A DNA stretch of 41,364 nt, taken from a virus (lineage: Duplodnaviria; Caudoviricetes). The notes below the pieces were generated by a model. It saw only the letters and a list, made by a program, of their open reading frames with translations. It had not been told where the DNA came from and made no database searches. Made by a program: the position numbers and the translations under genes. Below, piece by piece: positions 4,007-41,364 of the stretch (position 1 is its first letter; each line of letters opens with the position of its first letter). The stretch is from positions 1 to 41,364 of IMG/VR virus record IMGVR_UViG_3300012931_000036; one strand, 5' to 3'.

Positions 4007-4579
4007 ATGCCTATTTTAAACAATGGTGGGTTAGGTATAACTCCTGCATCAGGAGTTACTACATTTCTAGCGAGTCCTTCGTCTGCAAATCTTCGTGCTG
4101 CTTTGACAGATGAAACAGGCACTGGTGCTTTAGTTTTTGCAGGGGGTGCGTTAGGCGCAGCTACGGCAACGACTCCTGAATCTTTTCAAAATAATACCAA
4201 AGTCGCAACTACGGCATTTGTACATTGGCTTGCTGATTCTACACAAATTGGTACTCATGCAAACCCATCGACTACAACCCCACAGAATCCAAGCACCTAT
4301 GGTCCTCTGCGTGCCATTTGGTACGGCGTAACGGGAACTATTAATCTTCCCGCTGCTAGCGACAATTCTGGTAGAGGGGTTTTGGTATATAATACAGGAG
4401 CATTTACAATTACTCTTGAACCAAACGGAAGCGAGGTTATCGTACGTGATGGGACTGTGCAAACTGGCGGAGTTTCAATGACGCTTAGTTCTGGAGCCGG
4501 GAATTATGTGTATATCATAAGCGACGGAGTCAGATGGGTCACGCTTTGGTATAAAGGCACTCTTACTGAGGGCACTTAA
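4007..4579 (+). CDS. Fibre-like virion protein
   Basis: PSSANLRAALTDETGTGALVFA and NNTKVATTAFV fibre-repeat motifs; C-terminal ISDGVRW module. Confidence 0.65.
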   Translation: MPILNNGGLGITPASGVTTFLASPSSANLRAALTDETGTGALVFAGGALGAATATTPESFQNNTKVATTAFVHWLADSTQIGTHANPSTTTPQNPSTYGPLRAIWYGVTGTINLPAASDNSGRGVLVYNTGAFTITLEPNGSEVIVRDGTVQTGGVSMTLSSGAGNYVYIISDGVRWVTLWYKGTLTEGT

Positions 4580-5640: not shown

Positions 5641-7344
5641 ATGAGCGACCAAAAACTAGCTGAAGAGCAAATCAAGGCGTTCGAAGCTGGCGAGGCCAAG
5701 CGCAAGGGCAACTGGGATTCCGCGTGGCAGCAGGTCACGAACTACTTTCTTCCGCAGCAGTCGAACGTGCAGACGCAAAAGATGGAAGGCACTACGGGCT
5801 GGGCAGATAAACTTTACGATACGACGGCGGTACTCGCGGCCAAGACATTGCGCGCGGGTCAACTCAATTGGCTTACGCCTGCAAACGAACCGTGGGCAGC
5901 GTTCGAGCCGCCAGAGGAATTGTCTGCGGCAGGCAAGGAAGATGATAAGGACGAAGCCGCGCAGTGGCTTTCTAATGCGACGGATGTAACGATGCGCGAG
6001 CTGGCCAAGTCGAATTTCTATGCGATGGTTTCTATCGACTATTTGCAGTGCGGCACGGTCGGAACTGGGATGTTGTTTTGCGATGAGGGCAAAACCACCA
6101 CGCTCAACTTTCGCCAGTTCAAGCCGTGGCATTGCACCATTGAAGAGAATGACGAGGGAATCGTTGATACGCTGCGCCGTGAATTCGAACTGACGGCTAG
6201 ACAGGCTGCGCAGTGGTTCGGCGAGGACGCTCTGAGTAAAAAGATGCAGGACGAACTCAAGAGGAACAGCGACCCCTCTAAGAAGCACAAATTCATTCAC
6301 GCAATTTTCCCACGCGAGGACAGCAAGCGTTTGCCGGGCCGCAAGGATGGTGCCAACAAGCCGATTGCCAGCGTCTACATTGAACGCGATGCCAAGAACT
6401 GCGTTGAGGTCGGCGGATACGATGAAATGCCAATGTTTGTTACGCGCTTTGATGGTTGGGGAACAGATTCAGTTTGGGGATACTCGCCCGCCTTCGATGC
6501 CTTGGCTGATGCCCGTCAGGCAAACTACGTAAAACAGTACGGCCATGCGTTGCACGAATTGCAGGCGTATCCCCGTTTTATCGAGCCCGACACTATGGAA
6601 GGCGACACAGATTTGCGCCCTGGCGGTCGGACGACGGTCAACGCTGACGATATGGTGCGCGGCGCTGTACCGCGTGAGTGGATGACGGCTGGCCAGTCGA
6701 AGGGCTTGCAAGACGACTTGGAAGAGCTGAAAGACGCGATCAACAAGCATTTTTACGTGAACATGTTTACGATGCTAGAGCAACTGGCCGACAAGCGCAT
6801 GACGGCTTACGAGATCGCGCAGCGCGTAGGTGAGAAGCTAGAGCAGTTCACGCCGATCTTTTACCGCCGTGTGAGCGAATTTTTAAATCCGCTGCTTCGC
6901 CGCGTGTTTGGTATTCTGTATCGGGCTGGCAAGTTCGGCCCGGCTCCGCAGTCGCTTATGGTTCCTGTGCCGGGTACGCGCGATGTCTCGCGGCTGGCTC
7001 TGCCAGAGATCGCAATCACGAGCCGAATCAGCCTTGCGCTAAAGGCACTGCAAAATGCTGGCATCAATAATACGCTGGCCGGGCTTGAAGGACTGGCGAC
7101 GGCGCGGCCTGACATCTTCGACAATTTCGACTTGGACAAAGCGGCTCGCGAGTACGCCCGCAATAACGGCGTGCCCCCCGACTTTTTGCGTCCAATCAAG
7201 CAGATCAATGAAATCCGCTCACAGCGCGCCCAGCAGCAGGCACAGCAGCAAGCGCTGGCCGATGCCGAAACCGCGTCGAAGGCCGCAAAGAACGTCGGCG
7301 GTATGCCGCCCGAGATGCGTCAAGCGGCAATGAGCGCAGCATGA
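5641..7344 (+). CDS. Portal (head-to-tail connector), BPP-1/T7 gp8 family
   Basis: 567 aa; W..V.NYFLP, YDTTA, WGYSPA, MTAYEI.QR..EK and Gln-rich C-terminus. Confidence 0.93.
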   Translation: MSDQKLAEEQIKAFEAGEAKRKGNWDSAWQQVTNYFLPQQSNVQTQKMEGTTGWADKLYDTTAVLAAKTLRAGQLNWLTPANEPWAAFEPPEELSAAGKEDDKDEAAQWLSNATDVTMRELAKSNFYAMVSIDYLQCGTVGTGMLFCDEGKTTTLNFRQFKPWHCTIEENDEGIVDTLRREFELTARQAAQWFGEDALSKKMQDELKRNSDPSKKHKFIHAIFPREDSKRLPGRKDGANKPIASVYIERDAKNCVEVGGYDEMPMFVTRFDGWGTDSVWGYSPAFDALADARQANYVKQYGHALHELQAYPRFIEPDTMEGDTDLRPGGRTTVNADDMVRGAVPREWMTAGQSKGLQDDLEELKDAINKHFYVNMFTMLEQLADKRMTAYEIAQRVGEKLEQFTPIFYRRVSEFLNPLLRRVFGILYRAGKFGPAPQSLMVPVPGTRDVSRLALPEIAITSRISLALKALQNAGINNTLAGLEGLATARPDIFDNFDLDKAAREYARNNGVPPDFLRPIKQINEIRSQRAQQQAQQQALADAETASKAAKNVGGMPPEMRQAAMSAA

Positions 7345-7346
7345 GA

Positions 7347-7362
7347 TTGACATTACTGTAAA
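7347..7362 (+). promoter_or_regulatory. Palindromic late promoter/operator motif TTGACATTACTGTAAA
   Basis: Near-identical copies at 12090-12105 and 13778-13793, all intergenic upstream of structural genes. Confidence 0.65.
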
Positions 7363-7384
7363 GCAGTGCAGTTCTTGAGGCACA

Positions 7385-29209: not shown

Positions 29210-30064
29210 TTAAGGTATTGGCATTTCCTGAATGTAGTCAGGAACGCTTATCGGCGTGATTTCATCGCTTGATCCTGGCCAAACGCCAGAGTCATAGCAC
29301 TGTTTCAGCCGTGCGAGATCGGACATGATGTGACGGCGAGCAACGTCTAGCGTGATTTCGTCGGGTTCCCTCACCTCAACTTGGTGCGGCTCCTCCTTTT
29401 CAATGACGACGAACAGGAATCGAGGGAATGGACCTCCCAGATTTGCCGCCTCTTGCGTGACGATGCGATAAAACGCAGCCTGTTTCCAGTAGTTGAACTT
29501 CAGGAATTGGCGGTTGAAGTTGCTCAGGTGGTCAATCGTCTTCACGTCTACAATGAGCGGCCTGCCGTACTTGTCTAGCGTGTCATCAAACCAGTCTAGG
29601 CGGCTCTGTATGTCGAAAGAGGCCATCTTGACCCTTGCGACTATTTCAGGCGTTCCTTTTTCAAACAGACGGGCGGCTACGGGCTTTGCACGGATCGCCT
29701 TCGTCATCTTCCACGCTAAGTCTAGGTCTTCTTCGGAGATTACGGACTTCCCTGCGTTTTTGCTGGCGAACGCTTCGGCGTCTGCCTTGCCTTGTTTCGT
29801 GCGGCGGTCGAATGAAGGCGACACACAGAATCTCTCTGCGAAGGCCGATTCACCTTCGAGCGTGAGGCAGTGAAAGGCTTCCCCGAAAGACATCGCCTCA
29901 GACTGGATGTTTTCCTTGGCGGCTTCTTTACTGATGTGTCTGCGGTAGTAGAGAAGCGGAAGGTTTGGCGCTGAGAAATCTGCCAGCCGATGGGAACTGA
30001 CGCCCTCGGTGGCGTGATATTTCGCGCTAGATTCGTTTCGGATTAGGCCGTATGCGGTGCTCAT
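29210..30064 (-). CDS. recE: RecE/exonuclease VIII-like PD-(D/E)XK nuclease (DUF3799-type)
   Basis: YHA..GVSS, FG.AFH..LE, DRRTK.GK, RLD, VDVKT, Y..QAAFY and FLFVVIEKE.P. Confidence 0.88.
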   Translation of the reverse strand: MSTAYGLIRNESSAKYHATEGVSSHRLADFSAPNLPLLYYRRHISKEAAKENIQSEAMSFGEAFHCLTLEGESAFAERFCVSPSFDRRTKQGKADAEAFASKNAGKSVISEEDLDLAWKMTKAIRAKPVAARLFEKGTPEIVARVKMASFDIQSRLDWFDDTLDKYGRPLIVDVKTIDHLSNFNRQFLKFNYWKQAAFYRIVTQEAANLGGPFPRFLFVVIEKEEPHQVEVREPDEITLDVARRHIMSDLARLKQCYDSGVWPGSSDEITPISVPDYIQEMPIP

Positions 30065-30774
30065 GATTTGGCCTTGCTTGCTTCGATGTCGGCGCGGATC
30101 TGTTCGTCACCTTGGAATAAATCTTCAGTGACAGGCAGTGTTTCCAGCTTTGGAGCGTCGAGCGCGGAAAGCCTTTCGACTGGCGCGGGCGGCGTAACGT
30201 TGCGCGGTTCAGGCGGAATATCCCGCGCCTCCTCAGAGGCCATGCAGCCCTTGAGGACGTCGCTAAATCCATCGCGCAAGGCCCAGCTACGGGCACGCAT
30301 CAAGAGCATGCGCTGAGGGTAGGAAGTCCATGGGCCAGCCTTACCCCACAATCCCGCTTTCCTTGCGTCATCAATTGAGAACGTGCGGATAATCGGCTCA
30401 GAGTTACCGCGCCGTTTCACCGTCACGCGAGCGAAGGTAGGCTGAATATCGTCCTTGTAGTCTTCGAGGAGGCCGGACGCGTCAACGATTGCCTTCATGG
30501 CATCGCCCCAAATCGAGGGACGGCCATTGATGACAGCGATTGAACTAAGTGCGGTCATTGGAGGAAGGCCAAGTTCTGCACCGAACTGCATGGCGACTAG
30601 AACGGCCTGAGGCGTTTTGAAATCCTTTGGAGCCCAGCCGCCATCAATTACGGCTTTAGCGAAGATCAGCGCTTGCTCCATGGTCTGGAGCGCTACGCCG
30701 TTTTGGCCAAAGTGCATTAGTGACGATTGTTTGGGTGCTCCAGCGATTGGGATGGTAGGCGTTTCGTTATTCAT
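30061..30774 (-). CDS. recT: RecT-like ssDNA annealing protein
   Basis: G.ELGL.PM.AL..I.VINGRPSIWGD, A.KAGLWGK.GPW..YP.RML..RA...ALRD.F.DVLKG; paired with RecE. Confidence 0.88.
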   Translation of the reverse strand: MNNETPTIPIAGAPKQSSLMHFGQNGVALQTMEQALIFAKAVIDGGWAPKDFKTPQAVLVAMQFGAELGLPPMTALSSIAVINGRPSIWGDAMKAIVDASGLLEDYKDDIQPTFARVTVKRRGNSEPIIRTFSIDDARKAGLWGKAGPWTSYPQRMLLMRARSWALRDGFSDVLKGCMASEEARDIPPEPRNVTPPAPVERLSALDAPKLETLPVTEDLFQGDEQIRADIEASKAKS

Positions 30775-30856
30775 AGGTAAAAACTCAGTCCGTTAAACGG
30801 AAAATTAAAAGAAACAGTAAAGAAAGAGGGAGGATGGGAGGGAGATGGTAAAAAAG

Positions 30857-31066
30857 TCAACATTCAAGTTCTCCGAATGCAACTTTTATTGCAAGTGCTT
30901 CACCGAGTTTAGCAAGTGTGCTGTATTGAGGGTTGCCCATTCCATTTTCTATCTTGGAAAGATTGCCTTTGGATATGTCTGCTTGCTTGGCCAGGGCAGG
31001 AAGAGACATATTGCGCAGATGGCGAACGGCGCGAATGTAAGCGCCGAGTTTGGCTGTGTTTTTCAT
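30857..31066 (-). CDS. XRE-family HTH regulator
   Basis: IR.VR...MSL..LAKQADISKGNLSKIENG..NP...TL.KL..AL. Confidence 0.92.
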   Translation of the reverse strand: MKNTAKLGAYIRAVRHLRNMSLPALAKQADISKGNLSKIENGMGNPQYSTLAKLGEALAIKVAFGELEC

Positions 31067-31139
31067 AGGTTAAATTATGCCTCAGATTACGCGCTGAGGC
31101 TCCGCGTTTACTGATTACGTGCTGAACGAATAGCCTGTT

Positions 31140-33910: not shown

Positions 33911-34143
33911 TTGACCTTCGTTTTCTTCCACACTGTAAACTTGTCGTCATGCGTTGGCGTGATCTCCGACAAGCCTTCGCCTATTTGATTAAAAAGTGGC
34001 TGGAGTAAAAACTCGCGGTGGCCTTCGTCGTCTACGGTCAAAGCGCGGATAACTCGCCACAGGCATCCGTTAACCTCCGGTGTAGTTATCGCCAGCATGT
34101 CGCCCACGGTAATCTCGCATGCTCGTATGGTTTCTATTTTCAT
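33907..34143 (-). CDS. Hypothetical SH3-like small protein; first gene of the leftward operon
   Basis: I.A.EI.VGD pattern; follows the divergent intergenic region 34144-34308. Confidence 0.6.
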   Translation of the reverse strand: MKIETIRACEITVGDMLAITTPEVNGCLWRVIRALTVDDEGHREFLLQPLFNQIGEGLSEITPTHDDKFTVWKKTKVK

Positions 34144-34308
34144 AGGTTATGTTTACGCCGACAAGGGGTACGCAAAAAACGCTATACGACAAGCAGAATC
34201 TTACGATTTCACTTTATTGATACGCAACTAGTTGATTTGCTAGTCTTTAAGCTGAGATAAAATATTTAGGATTGAATCTCTGATTAAAATCGTAGAGGGT
34301 TTTCGCTA

Positions 34309-34824
34309 ATGAAGAAGATCCCATTAACAAAAGGCAAGTTCGCCATTGTAGATGACGAAGACTACGACAGGCTAATGAAATATAAATGGCACGAATCGAA
34401 TGGCTACGCGATACGTGTAATTAAACGTAAACCAAGAAAGAATGGTAAAAAGTCCAAATCTTTTTTGATGCATCGTGTAATAATGAAAGCTAGACGCGGG
34501 CAGTTTATCGATCATAAAAACATAGATAAACTCGATAATAGAAAAGAAAACCTCAGATTCTGCACGCCCCAACAGAATGCGTTTAATTTTGATATTTCAC
34601 GGAATAATAAAACAGGATACAAGGGAGTGCATATGCAGCCCAACGGAACGTATATAGCGATAATATACGTAGATGGGAAGGCGCGACGCCTTGGGTTGTT
34701 TTCAACCGCAAAAGAAGCAGGGGAGGCATATGATAAAGTCGCGCTAAAACACTTCGGTGAGTTTGCTAGAACCAATGCAATGATTCACGCTAACCGAACA
34801 ATGAATAACCCGCAACACATATGA
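34309..34824 (+). CDS. HNH-AP2 homing endonuclease
   Basis: IPLTKGKFAIVDDEDY, MHRVIM, IDHKN.DKLDNRKENLR, GYKGV, LG.F.TA.EA..AYD and FGEFA. Confidence 0.93.
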   Translation: MKKIPLTKGKFAIVDDEDYDRLMKYKWHESNGYAIRVIKRKPRKNGKKSKSFLMHRVIMKARRGQFIDHKNIDKLDNRKENLRFCTPQQNAFNFDISRNNKTGYKGVHMQPNGTYIAIIYVDGKARRLGLFSTAKEAGEAYDKVALKHFGEFARTNAMIHANRTMNNPQHI

Positions 34825-35237
34825 CAACTCAAAACTCAGATACACAAAATACCGTCGCCGAAGCCCCAGTCAATGGCGTTGGCCCTGGAGATTTGTTAGC
34901 TAATCTTACCCTGAAACAGAGTACGTGCCCACTATCCGATGTTGCCGCGCATAGCAGCAGTCCTAAAAACAACCTATACGTTTTAAGCGTCAAGCTTGAA
35001 CGCGAGAACGCAGCACTTCGAGCAGCTCTTGAACCATTCTCCCGCGAGTGGGCATCATGGCACGGCAAAAGCGCAAAGGCTGTGATGATATGCGAGGCCG
35101 GGTTTAGCCCAGTCGAAGCCGAGTTTACGCAGGACGACCTCCAGCGCGCTGCCGATATTTTGCTTAACAACCCAGTCAGCAACGCCGTGAGCGGGACTGA
35201 ACAACAGAACGGGCCAAGCAACGGCGTTGCGCTGTAG
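34821..35237 (+). CDS. Cassette 1 ORF, hypothetical
   Basis: N-terminus passes through attC half-site A; C-terminus is encoded by attC B. Confidence 0.65.
   Translation: MTTQNSDTQNTVAEAPVNGVGPGDLLANLTLKQSTCPLSDVAAHSSSPKNNLYVLSVKLERENAALRAALEPFSREWASWHGKSAKAVMICEAGFSPVEAEFTQDDLQRAADILLNNPVSNAVSGTEQQNGPSNGVAL
34875..34901 (-). mobile_element. attC-like half-site A (right arm only)
   Basis: GGCGTTGGCCC-T-GGAGATTT-GTTAGCT has the same geometry as the right arms of sites B-D; no matching left arm found. Confidence 0.5.
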
Positions 35238-35250
35238 TGGCTGGTTAGGC
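35162..35250 (-). mobile_element. attC-like site B (89 bp)
   Basis: GCTTAAC...AGTCAGCAACGCC / GGCGTT(GC)GCTG(T)AGT...GTTAGGC. Confidence 0.8.
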
Positions 35251-35261
35251 ATCTTTTACCT

Positions 35262-35507
35262 GTGAAACCAATAAATACAAAAACCCTCATTAACGTAATC
35301 AATCGCCTTCCTGCACCATCGCGGAAGGGCGAGGTGCATCAGGCGTATATTCGAAATCGCGTGGCCGAGCTGAACGAAGACTGGCCAATCTCAATCGAAG
35401 GTACTCCAGGCCGCGAAATATCGGGCATTGTAATACAGTTCATAGCCGTCGCGTACGTCAAAGATCGGAACCAGTGGCTGGAATGGGAGATCCTCAGTCT
35501 TGTCTAA
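35262..35507 (+). CDS. Cassette 2 ORF, hypothetical
   Basis: GTG start after site B; its TAA stop lies inside GTCTAAC of site C. Confidence 0.65.
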   Translation: MKPINTKTLINVINRLPAPSRKGEVHQAYIRNRVAELNEDWPISIEGTPGREISGIVIQFIAVAYVKDRNQWLEWEILSLV

Positions 35508-35596
35508 CGCCGGGGATGAGCAACGGCGAGCCAAGGACTAAATCTATGAACGAAAAGACACAATCCGAGCCGTTGCGCTCTAGCCCATTGTTAGGC
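35502..35596 (-). mobile_element. attC-like site C (95 bp) with AAGGA and ATG in its loop
   Basis: GTCTAAC...GATGAGCAACGGC / GCCGTT(GC)GCTC(T)AGC...GTTAGGC. Confidence 0.82.
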
Positions 35597-35827
35597 AATC
35601 TTAAAGTCGGTGATACTGTTGTCGCGACAACGATAATAACCCGCGTTGATAAGAAAGCCCGGCTCTGGCACGGGGATAAAGCGACCATTACGGATTTATT
35701 TAGGACTGAAGATGCGGTGATTGTCGGAGTCGAAACGGATAACGGGAGGCGTATTGGTGATATTGTTCTTTGGGGGAAACCGACCGACCTGTTGATTGCG
35801 GAGCCTAACAACCCGCATCAGCCATGA
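35546..35827 (+). CDS. Cassette 3 ORF, SH3/KOW-like small protein
   Basis: Starts within site C and stops within site D; LKVGDTVV...GDKATI pattern. Confidence 0.7.
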   Translation: MNEKTQSEPLRSSPLLGNLKVGDTVVATTIITRVDKKARLWHGDKATITDLFRTEDAVIVGVETDNGRRIGDIVLWGKPTDLLIAEPNNPHQP

Positions 35828-35897
35828 GCGACGAACAACAGAACGATAACGCCGCAGCCCCCGAGCAAGCGAATTGCGCTGTGGGCGATGGTTCGGC
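35803..35897 (-). mobile_element. attC-like site D (95 bp, inner stem degenerate)
   Basis: GCCTAAC...CATCAGC / GCTG(T)GGG...GTTCGGC; loop shares GAACAACAGAACG with site B. Confidence 0.7.
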
Positions 35898-36063
35898 GTC
35901 TTCCGTGGACGCAGCATTTATGGCCGAGTGGGCGAATATGTTTCCGGTAGGTGACGACGGAGGACTATCTCCAACTGCCGTGCATATCGCCATGGAGTGC
36001 TTCAGGCGCGGAGCACTCTGGCAAGCCTGTCAGCCGAACATCCGCCGATCAGACACGCCGTAG
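35824..36063 (+). CDS. Cassette 4 ORF, hypothetical
   Basis: Starts within site D and stops within site E. Confidence 0.6.
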   Translation: MSDEQQNDNAAAPEQANCAVGDGSASSVDAAFMAEWANMFPVGDDGGLSPTAVHIAMECFRRGALWQACQPNIRRSDTP

Positions 36064-36091
36064 GGCGTTGTCTGTATCGCGCTGGTTGGGG
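36033..36091 (-). mobile_element. attC-like site E (59 bp)
   Basis: GCCGAAC-6 nt-CGATCAGACACGCC-gtag-GGCGT(T)GTCTG(T)ATCG-5 nt-GTTGGGG, with two extrahelical bases. Confidence 0.88.
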
Positions 36092-36136
36092 CTCCGATTT
36101 TAACGCAACGACAACAATCAAATAACAGGAAATACT

Positions 36137-36475
36137 ATGAGTGGTGGAAGCTGGGATTACTTTTACGGGCGACTTGAAGAAGTCGCTTCACGTCTTCAAT
36201 GCGAGCGCGACCCGCTCCGCAAAGCATTTGGCTCGCATCTCCAAAAATGCGCGAAGGCGCTCCACGACATCGAGTGGGTGGACTCGTGCGACTCTGCGCC
36301 GGGCGACGAAGTGAAGGCGATCAAGGCCGTGCTCGGCACCGACGGCCCGGCGCTCGTTCTTTCTGAATCTCGCAAGCAGGCAGAAGCGGCGCTAGAACAA
36401 CTCAAGGCGGCGCTGGCAGATTGCCCTAACAACCGGGGTCAGACAATGGCGCTAGATAAACGGAAAACGATATGA
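36137..36475 (+). CDS. Cassette 5 ORF, MSGGS.DY phage family hypothetical
   Basis: AGGA RBS; MSGGSWDY...KALHDIEW.DS.D motif; reads through half-site F. Confidence 0.8.
   Translation: MSGGSWDYFYGRLEEVASRLQCERDPLRKAFGSHLQKCAKALHDIEWVDSCDSAPGDEVKAIKAVLGTDGPALVLSESRKQAEAALEQLKAALADCPNNRGQTMALDKRKTI
36423..36444 (-). mobile_element. attC-like half-site F (left arm only)
   Basis: GCCCTAAC-AACCGG-GGTCAGAC; its AAC box complements GTTGGGGC of site E. Confidence 0.6.
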
Positions 36476-39534: not shown

Positions 39535-39735
39535 ATGAAGCCCGACCTCTGCGAGAAATGCGCCGCGCATGGCATAATCGCCACAAAGCATGGCCCGACG
39601 TGCTCGCACTCGACGCCTGCTGGCGAGAGCTGGTGGCCTGCTGAGTGGGCGACAATGCTAGAGGCGCAAAGACTTTCTTGGATTAAGGAAAACCGTCAGA
39701 CTAAATCAACCTATGAAAATCGAACTAAACGATAA
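39535..39735 (+). CDS. Hypothetical protein
   Basis: ORF in the rightward operon; CEKC motif. Confidence 0.5.
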   Translation: MKPDLCEKCAAHGIIATKHGPTCSHSTPAGESWWPAEWATMLEAQRLSWIKENRQTKSTYENRTKR

Positions 39736-40734: not shown

Positions 40735-41039
40735 TGACGGCCCTCCGCTTCGGAGATAGCTTTGCGAATTTCGGCAAGCCAAGGCGTGTAGATATACGGA
40801 CGTGCGGCGCATAGGCTGGATACGTTGCCTTCGCACAGCTTTAGTGCCTGCAAAAGCTCAGGCGCGGCGGCGATCAGATGGGCGTTAGCAGCATCCATTT
40901 CCACGGTATCAGGCCGACCGCTTTTGTGGACAACCGCGAAATTACCGTAGGATGGCGAGCTTAGATAATAGCCAGCGTCGTCTTCAATATAAGTCCAAGG
41001 GCCGGGCGCGTGCTGCGATTTATTGTCGTAGGTTTTCAT
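40731..41039 (-). CDS. Conserved phage early protein (H.PGPW...ANA.LIAAAPELL.AL family)
   Basis: HAPGPW and ANAHLIAAAPELLQAL motifs; ATG overlaps the stop of the Ala-rich gene. Confidence 0.85.
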   Translation of the reverse strand: MKTYDNKSQHAPGPWTYIEDDAGYYLSSPSYGNFAVVHKSGRPDTVEMDAANAHLIAAAPELLQALKLCEGNVSSLCAARPYIYTPWLAEIRKAISEAEGRQ

Positions 41040-41364
41040 GGGCATTTCGGCAGGTGTTTGCGGACGATTTCGGCGCATTCTTTAATAGCTTTGGTTCTAG
41101 CAGCATCAGCATCAGCAGAAGCATCAGCATCAGCAGCAGCAGAAGCATCAGCAGCAGCATCAGCATCAGCATCAGCAGCATAAGCATCAGCAGCAGCAGC
41201 AGCATCAGCAGCAGCAGCAGCATCAGCAGCAGCAGAAGCATCAGCAGCAGCAGAAGCAGCAGCATCAGCAGCAGCAGCAGCATAAGCAGCATAAGCAGCA
41301 GTAGAAGCATAAGCAGCAGCAGAAGCATAAGCAGCAGCAGCAGCAGCATAAGCAGCAGCAGAAG
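41036..41364 (-). CDS. 3' part of the Ala-rich repeat protein (joins 499->1)
   Basis: Frame reads ...AAADADAARTKAIKECAEIVRKHLPKCP*. Confidence 0.8.
   Translation of the reverse strand, partial: SAAAYAAAAAAYASAAAYASTAAYAAYAAAAADAAASAAADASAAADAAAAADAAAAADAYAADADADAAADASAAADADASADADAARTKAIKECAEIVRKHLPKCP

Follow-up and report, generated by a model that had tools for sequence, protein, structure and literature searches.

Why does a phage without an integron integrase open an early operon with a row of attC sites, and why do the genes between these sites run backwards? Integron cassettes are taught as gene-then-attC units, in which attC is at most a brake on expression. The stretch of DNA analyzed here (the window, 41,364 nt) is an entire phage record bounded by direct terminal repeats. 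It has genes for terminase, a T7-like connector, capsid, tail and RecE/RecT, and two divergent early arms; the attC array is the opening of the rightward arm. The sequencing runs that contain the array are wetland metagenomes, and no RNA run is listed among them. Promoter and terminator scans gave chance-level results only.

The reading that we favor, with a probability of about 0.7, is that the phage carries Opitutaceae-type attC sites in an integrase-less array with reversed genes, where an integron integrase (IntI) acting in trans likely moves each attC together with the gene that follows it. At the level of sequence comparison, the orientation of the genes, the family of the sites, a moved unit bounded by AAC and swapped protein tails are all evident.

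The attC sites

The array consists of four whole attC sites (B to E), one decayed site (A) and one half-site (F), all on the minus strand and presumably lettered from left to right. Sites B (35162-35250; AAC at 35166-35168, GTT at 35244) and C (35502-35596) are intact. Site D (35803-35897) belongs to a subfamily with an ATG straight after the L box, and its inner stem is imperfect. Site E (36033-36091; AAC at 36037-36039) is short, with spacers one base longer. In site A (34800-34901) the AAC has become AAT and the L-box stem is lost; half-site F (36424-36474) is an attC left arm, after which the next gene of the operon begins. B, C and D have R boxes with AAC and GTT, and L boxes after spacers of 5-6 nt.

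The original prediction placed an extrahelical base on the GTT-side arm, 8 nt from GTT in A to D and 9 nt in E, and concluded that the sites are flipped relative to the genes. On that arm B (35235), C (35581) and D (35882) do have an unpaired T at 8 nt from GTT, and E (36075) has one at 9 nt; site A also has the T (34886), but its arms no longer pair, so the base is at most a candidate extrahelical base there. In attC sites, as sections of PMC5027507 describe, the bottom strand bears the extrahelical bases, which face the AAC triplet, and crossover falls between A and C. In B, C, D and E the extrahelical base faces AAC on the plus strand, and the coding (plus) strand therefore corresponds to the integron bottom strand. 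The sites are thus flipped, and related genomes agree.

Are these sites distinguishable from chance hairpins? An attC profile trained on genome and metagenome (non-viral) sites, the right-arm seed of which came from a window-derived pattern, gave 50 bits for B, 50 for C and 35 for D; the top score in 30 resampled windows was 13.7. No site in the window other than B, C and D exceeded the threshold, E failing on its longer spacers. A left-arm-only profile (35 genome sites) also put B, D and C on top. A scan of both strands of the whole window for geometry alone found only B, C and E, every one flipped; D failed because its inner stem is broken. Folding placed B, C and E, with the R boxes paired, at or within 0.3 kcal/mol of the plus-strand minimum; D takes another fold, and A gives no attC fold. 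In alignments the left part of site A resembles site D and its loop resembles other members of the attC family, and site A recurs in other contigs as an isolated shared piece. The site B type, with its tail, occurs in two further loci (L148 and L073).

Several candidates were discarded. Starts of site A at 34858 or 34788 were dropped for 34800 after alignment, and the idea that site D is a chimera was ruled out by the identical arm pairing in L059, L063 and L066. A motif search with site B gave a single match, judged to be chance, and a strict right-arm pattern had zero matches in viral contigs. Half-site F was ruled out as an attI, its L box being of the attC type and unlike the attI beside 12 intI genes. 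Since F resembles an attC arm and not an attI, the window phage carries a CALIN that would need IntI in trans: it has four attC sites and no integron integrase. Of the parts of a complete integron, intI and attI are missing, and no Pc stood out from chance in the promoter scan.

A host attC family with its cargo reversed

The right-arm pattern was found in 85 stretches of genome contigs; among the 80 listed, most are from Opitutaceae or other Verrucomicrobiota, and many lie in long arrays. In four of five such genomes an IntI above the TIGR02249 cut-off adjoins the array. The arms of the phage sites are near-identical to those of chromosomal attC sites beside IntI. As the array matches the Opitutaceae attC family, the host of the phage is likely an Opitutaceae bacterium. 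Sedentary chromosomal integrons of this family (Nibricoccus and others) share the arms, spacers, bulge and intI-to-attC geometry of the phage sites, and show read-through as well. They differ in their loops, which are G-rich where those of the phages are A/C-rich, and in their cargo, which lies on the opposite strand from that of the window phage, i.e. in the normal orientation.

The extent of this reversal was gauged by assigning the gene after each GTT box to a strand by ORF length. It lies on the strand that has AAC at left in 37 of 62 viral sites (10 opposite, 15 ambiguous or at an edge), against 12 of 167 genome sites (117 opposite, 38 ambiguous; the set includes flipped prophages, e.g. 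L148 and L164) and 29 of 248 metagenome sites (163 opposite), the sites being non-independent, with 18 viral loci and few chromosomal genomes that hold near-copy sites. About one-third of 36 matches from one search had no matching left arm and were excluded. AT skew agrees with orientation in 52 of 59 viral sites and is uninformative for genome sites (81 vs 74 of 163).

Some normal-orientation chromosomal sites have long A-rich loops (L107:722-848; L151:6321-6448 and 7252-7378; L123), like the leader loops of site A and L204, and some of this group still hold an ATG. Because of this resemblance, attC traffic between the phage and host pools seems possible. In two chromosomal loci (L113 and L145), in one case just before an intI-like gene, a loop ATG opens a frame of 102 or 163 aa on the phage-type strand. 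Such frames may reflect phage-type cassettes within host arrays or else be shadow ORFs; neither of the two in L113 had an NCBIfam match. In another locus (L059, reverse strand, ~2475-2600 and ~4240-4470) a cassette head is duplicated inside one flipped array of ~7 sites.

Integrases and the geometry of the platform

No tyrosine recombinase was detected among the 47 phage proteins scanned, there was no six-frame PF00589 match at E<=1, and no attI was found in the window phage. Elsewhere, an IntI above the TIGR02249 cut-off occurs in 5 of the 18 viral records with this attC family. In all five the intI gene is 3' of the sites, on the cargo strand and on the strand with AAC at left, as in chromosomal integrons, and in the records inspected by eye an attI-like AAC stands just ahead of it. 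In one of these (L094) intI is immediately preceded by a methyltransferase cassette on the same strand. Because intI has the same position and strand as in chromosomes, the sequences argue that the intI-attC platform is regular in phage records and that only the cargo is flipped. In the Spirochaetes-type inverted-integrase integrons, as far as parts of the two accounts go (PMC13323075, 10.1101/2022.02.06.479319), intI is likewise co-directional with the cassette genes; there it is intI that is flipped relative to attC, whereas in the five phage records intI-attC geometry is regular. Orientation relative to replication also affects excision, according to PMC5371416.

Could the hairpins be substrates of another, phage-specific recombinase? 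We regard this as very improbable. The phage IntI-like proteins are short, reach just 272-313 bits where the cut-off is 265, and form branches separate from the main chromosomal group, and two records have only weak tyrosine-recombinase matches. The phage enzymes nevertheless match almost the full length of TIGR02249, the window phage has no tyrosine recombinase of any kind, and the site arms are those of chromosomal attC beside IntI. As to the proteins themselves, the phage IntI (L322-L326) are shorter than most chromosomal IntI, and one IntI from a bacterial chromosome (L321) groups with a proviral one and may be prophage-borne.

Genes that borrow stops, and probably some starts, from the sites

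All genes of the array are on the plus strand, and most of them enter or leave through an attC site (tails are quoted up to the stop). At the head is an HNH endonuclease gene (34309..34824), the last codons of which enter site A and the TGA of which overlaps the ATG at 34821. Gene A (34821..35237, 138 aa) takes the tail NNPVSN..VAL from site B. Gene B (35262..35507, 81 aa) starts with GTG 11 nt past site B and stops on the TAA of site C's box. Gene C (35546..35827, 93 aa) draws its first 17 residues from site C and the tail PNNPHQP from site D, and gene D (35824..36063, 79 aa) takes PNIRRSDTP from site E. Gene E (36137..36475, 112 aa), a widespread phage protein, takes its tail from half-site F, and its TGA overlaps the ATG at 36472.

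It had been proposed that the sites supply both translation starts and stops, with an AAGGA and ATG 35546 inside C, ATG 35824 inside D in an ATGA overlap, an ORF from 34821 running through A, and four of five ORFs reading into the next site for a stop. These positions are correct, ATG 34821 falling inside the decayed A, as are the four tails; the fifth gene is B. The stops are thus supplied by the sites. The starts are so supplied only in A (34821), C (35546) and D (35824), the genes after B and E starting outside. The start of gene C must lie in site C: its conserved core begins just past the GTT box, and from that box up to 35717 the frame offers no start codon; one of its homologues has an attC-like leader of its own and the others do not.

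Homologues place genes A, C and E on the plus (bottom) strand. None was found for gene B or gene D, which we take as putative coding sequences, and no cargo gene of the array matched an informative Pfam or PHROG family. Gene E has 57 related loci; among 45 distinct homologous proteins a flipped attC lies upstream of 5, a canonical one of 0, and no site of 40. Homologues of gene E in L030, L033, L040 and L048 are headed by flipped attC of unrelated sequence families, and gene E therefore rides backwards cassettes in other phage groups too. A related contig runs from 34144 to 34821 without the HNH gene, which for that reason may be a late insertion at the array head. The TAG at 35235, whose first base is the unpaired T of site B, was considered as a nonsense mutation splitting one gene; this was ruled out by the identical stop and tail in L148 and L073.

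Is such borrowing a general property of the phage sites? Frames were examined in 56 non-redundant viral sites from 18 loci, with L030, L048 and L051 excluded as other attC families. An open ATG inside the site and in the cargo frame was found in 22 of the 36 viral sites with a clear frame, vs 7.1 expected from loop shuffles, and in 14 of 82 chromosomal sites read in their own direction. The frame that reads AAC as Asn stops inside the site in 56 of 56 viral sites (the other frames in 23 and 40) and in 74 of 95 chromosomal ones (Fisher p 4e-5 vs viral, with sites non-independent). The upstream gene is in this Asn register at 32 of 43 viral sites and at 5 of 6 junctions in the window; site C has an unused Asn-frame TAA (35539-35541) four bases ahead of its ATG. 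Read-through into attC is in itself not special, because chromosomal sites also show it (stop in the site in 29 and in the box in 26 of 99 sites) and overlap of stop and attC is the published rule in cassettes, at least in parts of PMC11511950.

There are three ATGA overlaps in the window (34821, 35824, 36472); among viral sites they occur at 5 of 10 that are testable vs 1.9 expected, in a small set of related sites. From this arrangement, translational coupling across the sites appears probable. The case for the AAGGA of site C (35533-35537) as a ribosome binding site is weak, since SD-like motifs precede only 12 of 49 starts checked in the window phage. Coupling across a recombination site, and stops on attC, are likewise known from ORF-11 of attI1 and from attC-stop overlaps, as sections of PMC8876359 and PMC11511950 describe; in the window the coupling element would be carried by each cassette's own attC, and on the other strand.

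Two features of the starts are recorded here in their own right. The ATG of the D subfamily (window 35821-35827) occupies the stem position of a consensus ACG, so that a single C-to-T change would give ATG at a cost in pairing. The majority of gene starts in the window phage are A/C-rich without a Shine-Dalgarno motif, and a AACCTATGAAA-type context recurs at gene starts (30763-30778, 31048-31074, 34125-34151, 39702-39724).

What moves, and by what route?

A related 41.4-kb phage (L001) shares window positions 36037-36434 at 99.5% identity. The match opens with the first A of the AAC in site E and stops four bases past the next AAC, these four bases being common to several sites. The shared unit ends, in that phage, in an attC remnant like half-site F. 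Gene E ends in PNNRGQTMALDKRKTI in the window and in PNNPQQP in the related phage, and the gene upstream of the unit is unrelated there, yet has the tail NIRRSDTP in both phages. Both phages also have long alanine-rich, low-complexity genes made of 9-nt repeats (window 41020-41364 and 1-499; L001:2657-3391), which differ in sequence.

Other loci point the same way. L083 and L095 have a common unit of 649 bp that runs from AAC to AAC, and contigs from another study repeat the unit 36037-36434, possibly from the L001 population. Among the contigs of that study, gene C ends on the C of AAC 35809 (depth 3), and site B stands alone, without cargo (35165-35247, the piece ending at the GTTA of 35247). 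Two homologues of gene A match as far as the Asn and then have other tails, and sites of the D subfamily precede cargo that differs between the window, L001, L059, L063 and L066. Seven alignments among loci comprise three overlaps or core genes and four at the level of cassettes. The latter start at AAC in two cases (L001/window and L083/L095) and in the right arm in two (L068/L164 and L094/L204); three of the four end at AAC. As AAC-adjacent bases are common to sites, the end points carry 3-6 nt of micro-homology. Taken together, the junctions and the gene A homologues indicate that the usual border is AAC, and that attC and cargo can separate at the GTT end as well.

The original prediction had each mobile unit as an upstream attC, with ribosome binding site and start, plus its gene. 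The attC-plus-gene unit is recovered (L001, L083/L095); the start lies in the site for three of five genes only, the ribosome binding site is doubtful as noted, and some natural breakpoints are at the GTT end or within the right arm. It also held that shuffling would swap C-terminal tails, and it proposed to check whether similarity among homologues ends at the AAC box. The tail swap is borne out: gene E has a new tail in the related phage, the upstream gene there has the same one as in the window, and the gene A homologues diverge after the Asn.

Do these exchanges require an integrase at all? The window phage encodes RecT-like and exonuclease VIII proteins (29210-30774), and integron-derived sites might now be shuffled by RecE/RecT homologous recombination at shared attC. 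The absence of an integrase from this phage is consistent with that route, and its strongest ground is the set of junctions that map to the right arm or the GTT box. We nonetheless consider it unlikely, as the identity with L001 sets in at the first A of AAC, is preceded by unrelated sequence and breaks off after just 10 shared bases; of four units, three have AAC as their end; and B, C and E retain their bulge geometry. The integrase and RecE/RecT routes may both operate.

It is more improbable that the array is a frozen relic, shuffled once and now serving only as start and stop signals. The decay of A and F, the imperfection of D and the loss of intI and attI fit such a relic, as does the fact that, in contigs of the run that has the whole stretch, no excision joint was found within the array. 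Yet two different arrays carry the E unit with 99.5% identity, so the move was recent; B, C and E fold as attC; and Opitutaceae genomes encode IntI.

Relation to known cassettes

Phage CALINs are already known: in parts of Qi et al. 2023 (PMC9892861), which describe clusters of attC sites without integrase in phages, as here, IntI1 recombined 5 of 6 tested sites, the bottom strand more than the top. The text of that paper describes arrays typical of bacterial cassettes and has no inverted genes, in-attC starts or swapped tails in the parts consulted; its supplementary annotations may hold cases. Canonical cassettes, from sections of Nivina et al. 2016 (PMC5027507), likewise have R and L boxes, an extrahelical base opposite AAC on the recombined strand and crossover between A and C. 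In them an attC closes the top-strand gene to which it belongs, whereas in the window each bottom-strand gene is preceded by its attC. The unit is thus attC then gene and not the canonical order, in which attC comes second; on shuffling a gene keeps its 5' leader and acquires another 3' tail, a mirror image of the canonical arrangement. Our searches, subscription literature aside, found no paper that describes phage cassettes in inverted form, starts inside the sites or exchange of tails. The inverted cargo appears to be new, and natural sequences document both the unit that moves and the exchange of tails with unusual directness.

A model and its implications

In the integrase reading, an integron integrase from the host or from another phage likely cuts the folded coding strand at AA/C, and the mobile unit would be an attC followed by its gene. 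The grammar that we propose is that genes usually lack a stop of their own, read AAC as Asn and stop in the site. Since the stop in the site is often at or near the loop ATG, most new orders would yield a closed, coupled operon. The flip may have originated in an intI-attI at the 3' end of a phage early operon, pointing in the same direction as its promoter. With such a sense intI-attI at the operon end only backwards cassettes would be expressed, which would select a reversed pool. The window phage would later have lost intI and attI, with A, D and F decaying into translation signals.

A broader proposal, which we consider possible but doubtful, is that Opitutaceae phages keep a mirror-image cassette pool with its own translational grammar and closed, coupled operons, in which host and phage cassettes are mutually silent and in which GTT-end exchanges, together with relic-leader-like loops in hosts, mark a route of cassette birth. 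Anti-phage cassettes have been reported from integrons. If the proposal is true, host cassettes, including anti-phage ones, would go unexpressed in phage arrays, as would phage cassettes at the host attI, and the GTT-end exchanges would show attC joined to new genes, i.e. cassette birth made visible.

For annotation, tools pair the genes of such reversed cassettes with the wrong attC. A site that recurs with different cargo could help to trace how cassettes first arise, and the array is a testable case of one DNA structure serving both recombination and translation. Phages here appear to use a host attC family in mirror image, with a leader that moves with its gene and a universal stop for the gene upstream, and the array suggests that phages vary their early genes via host integron integrases.
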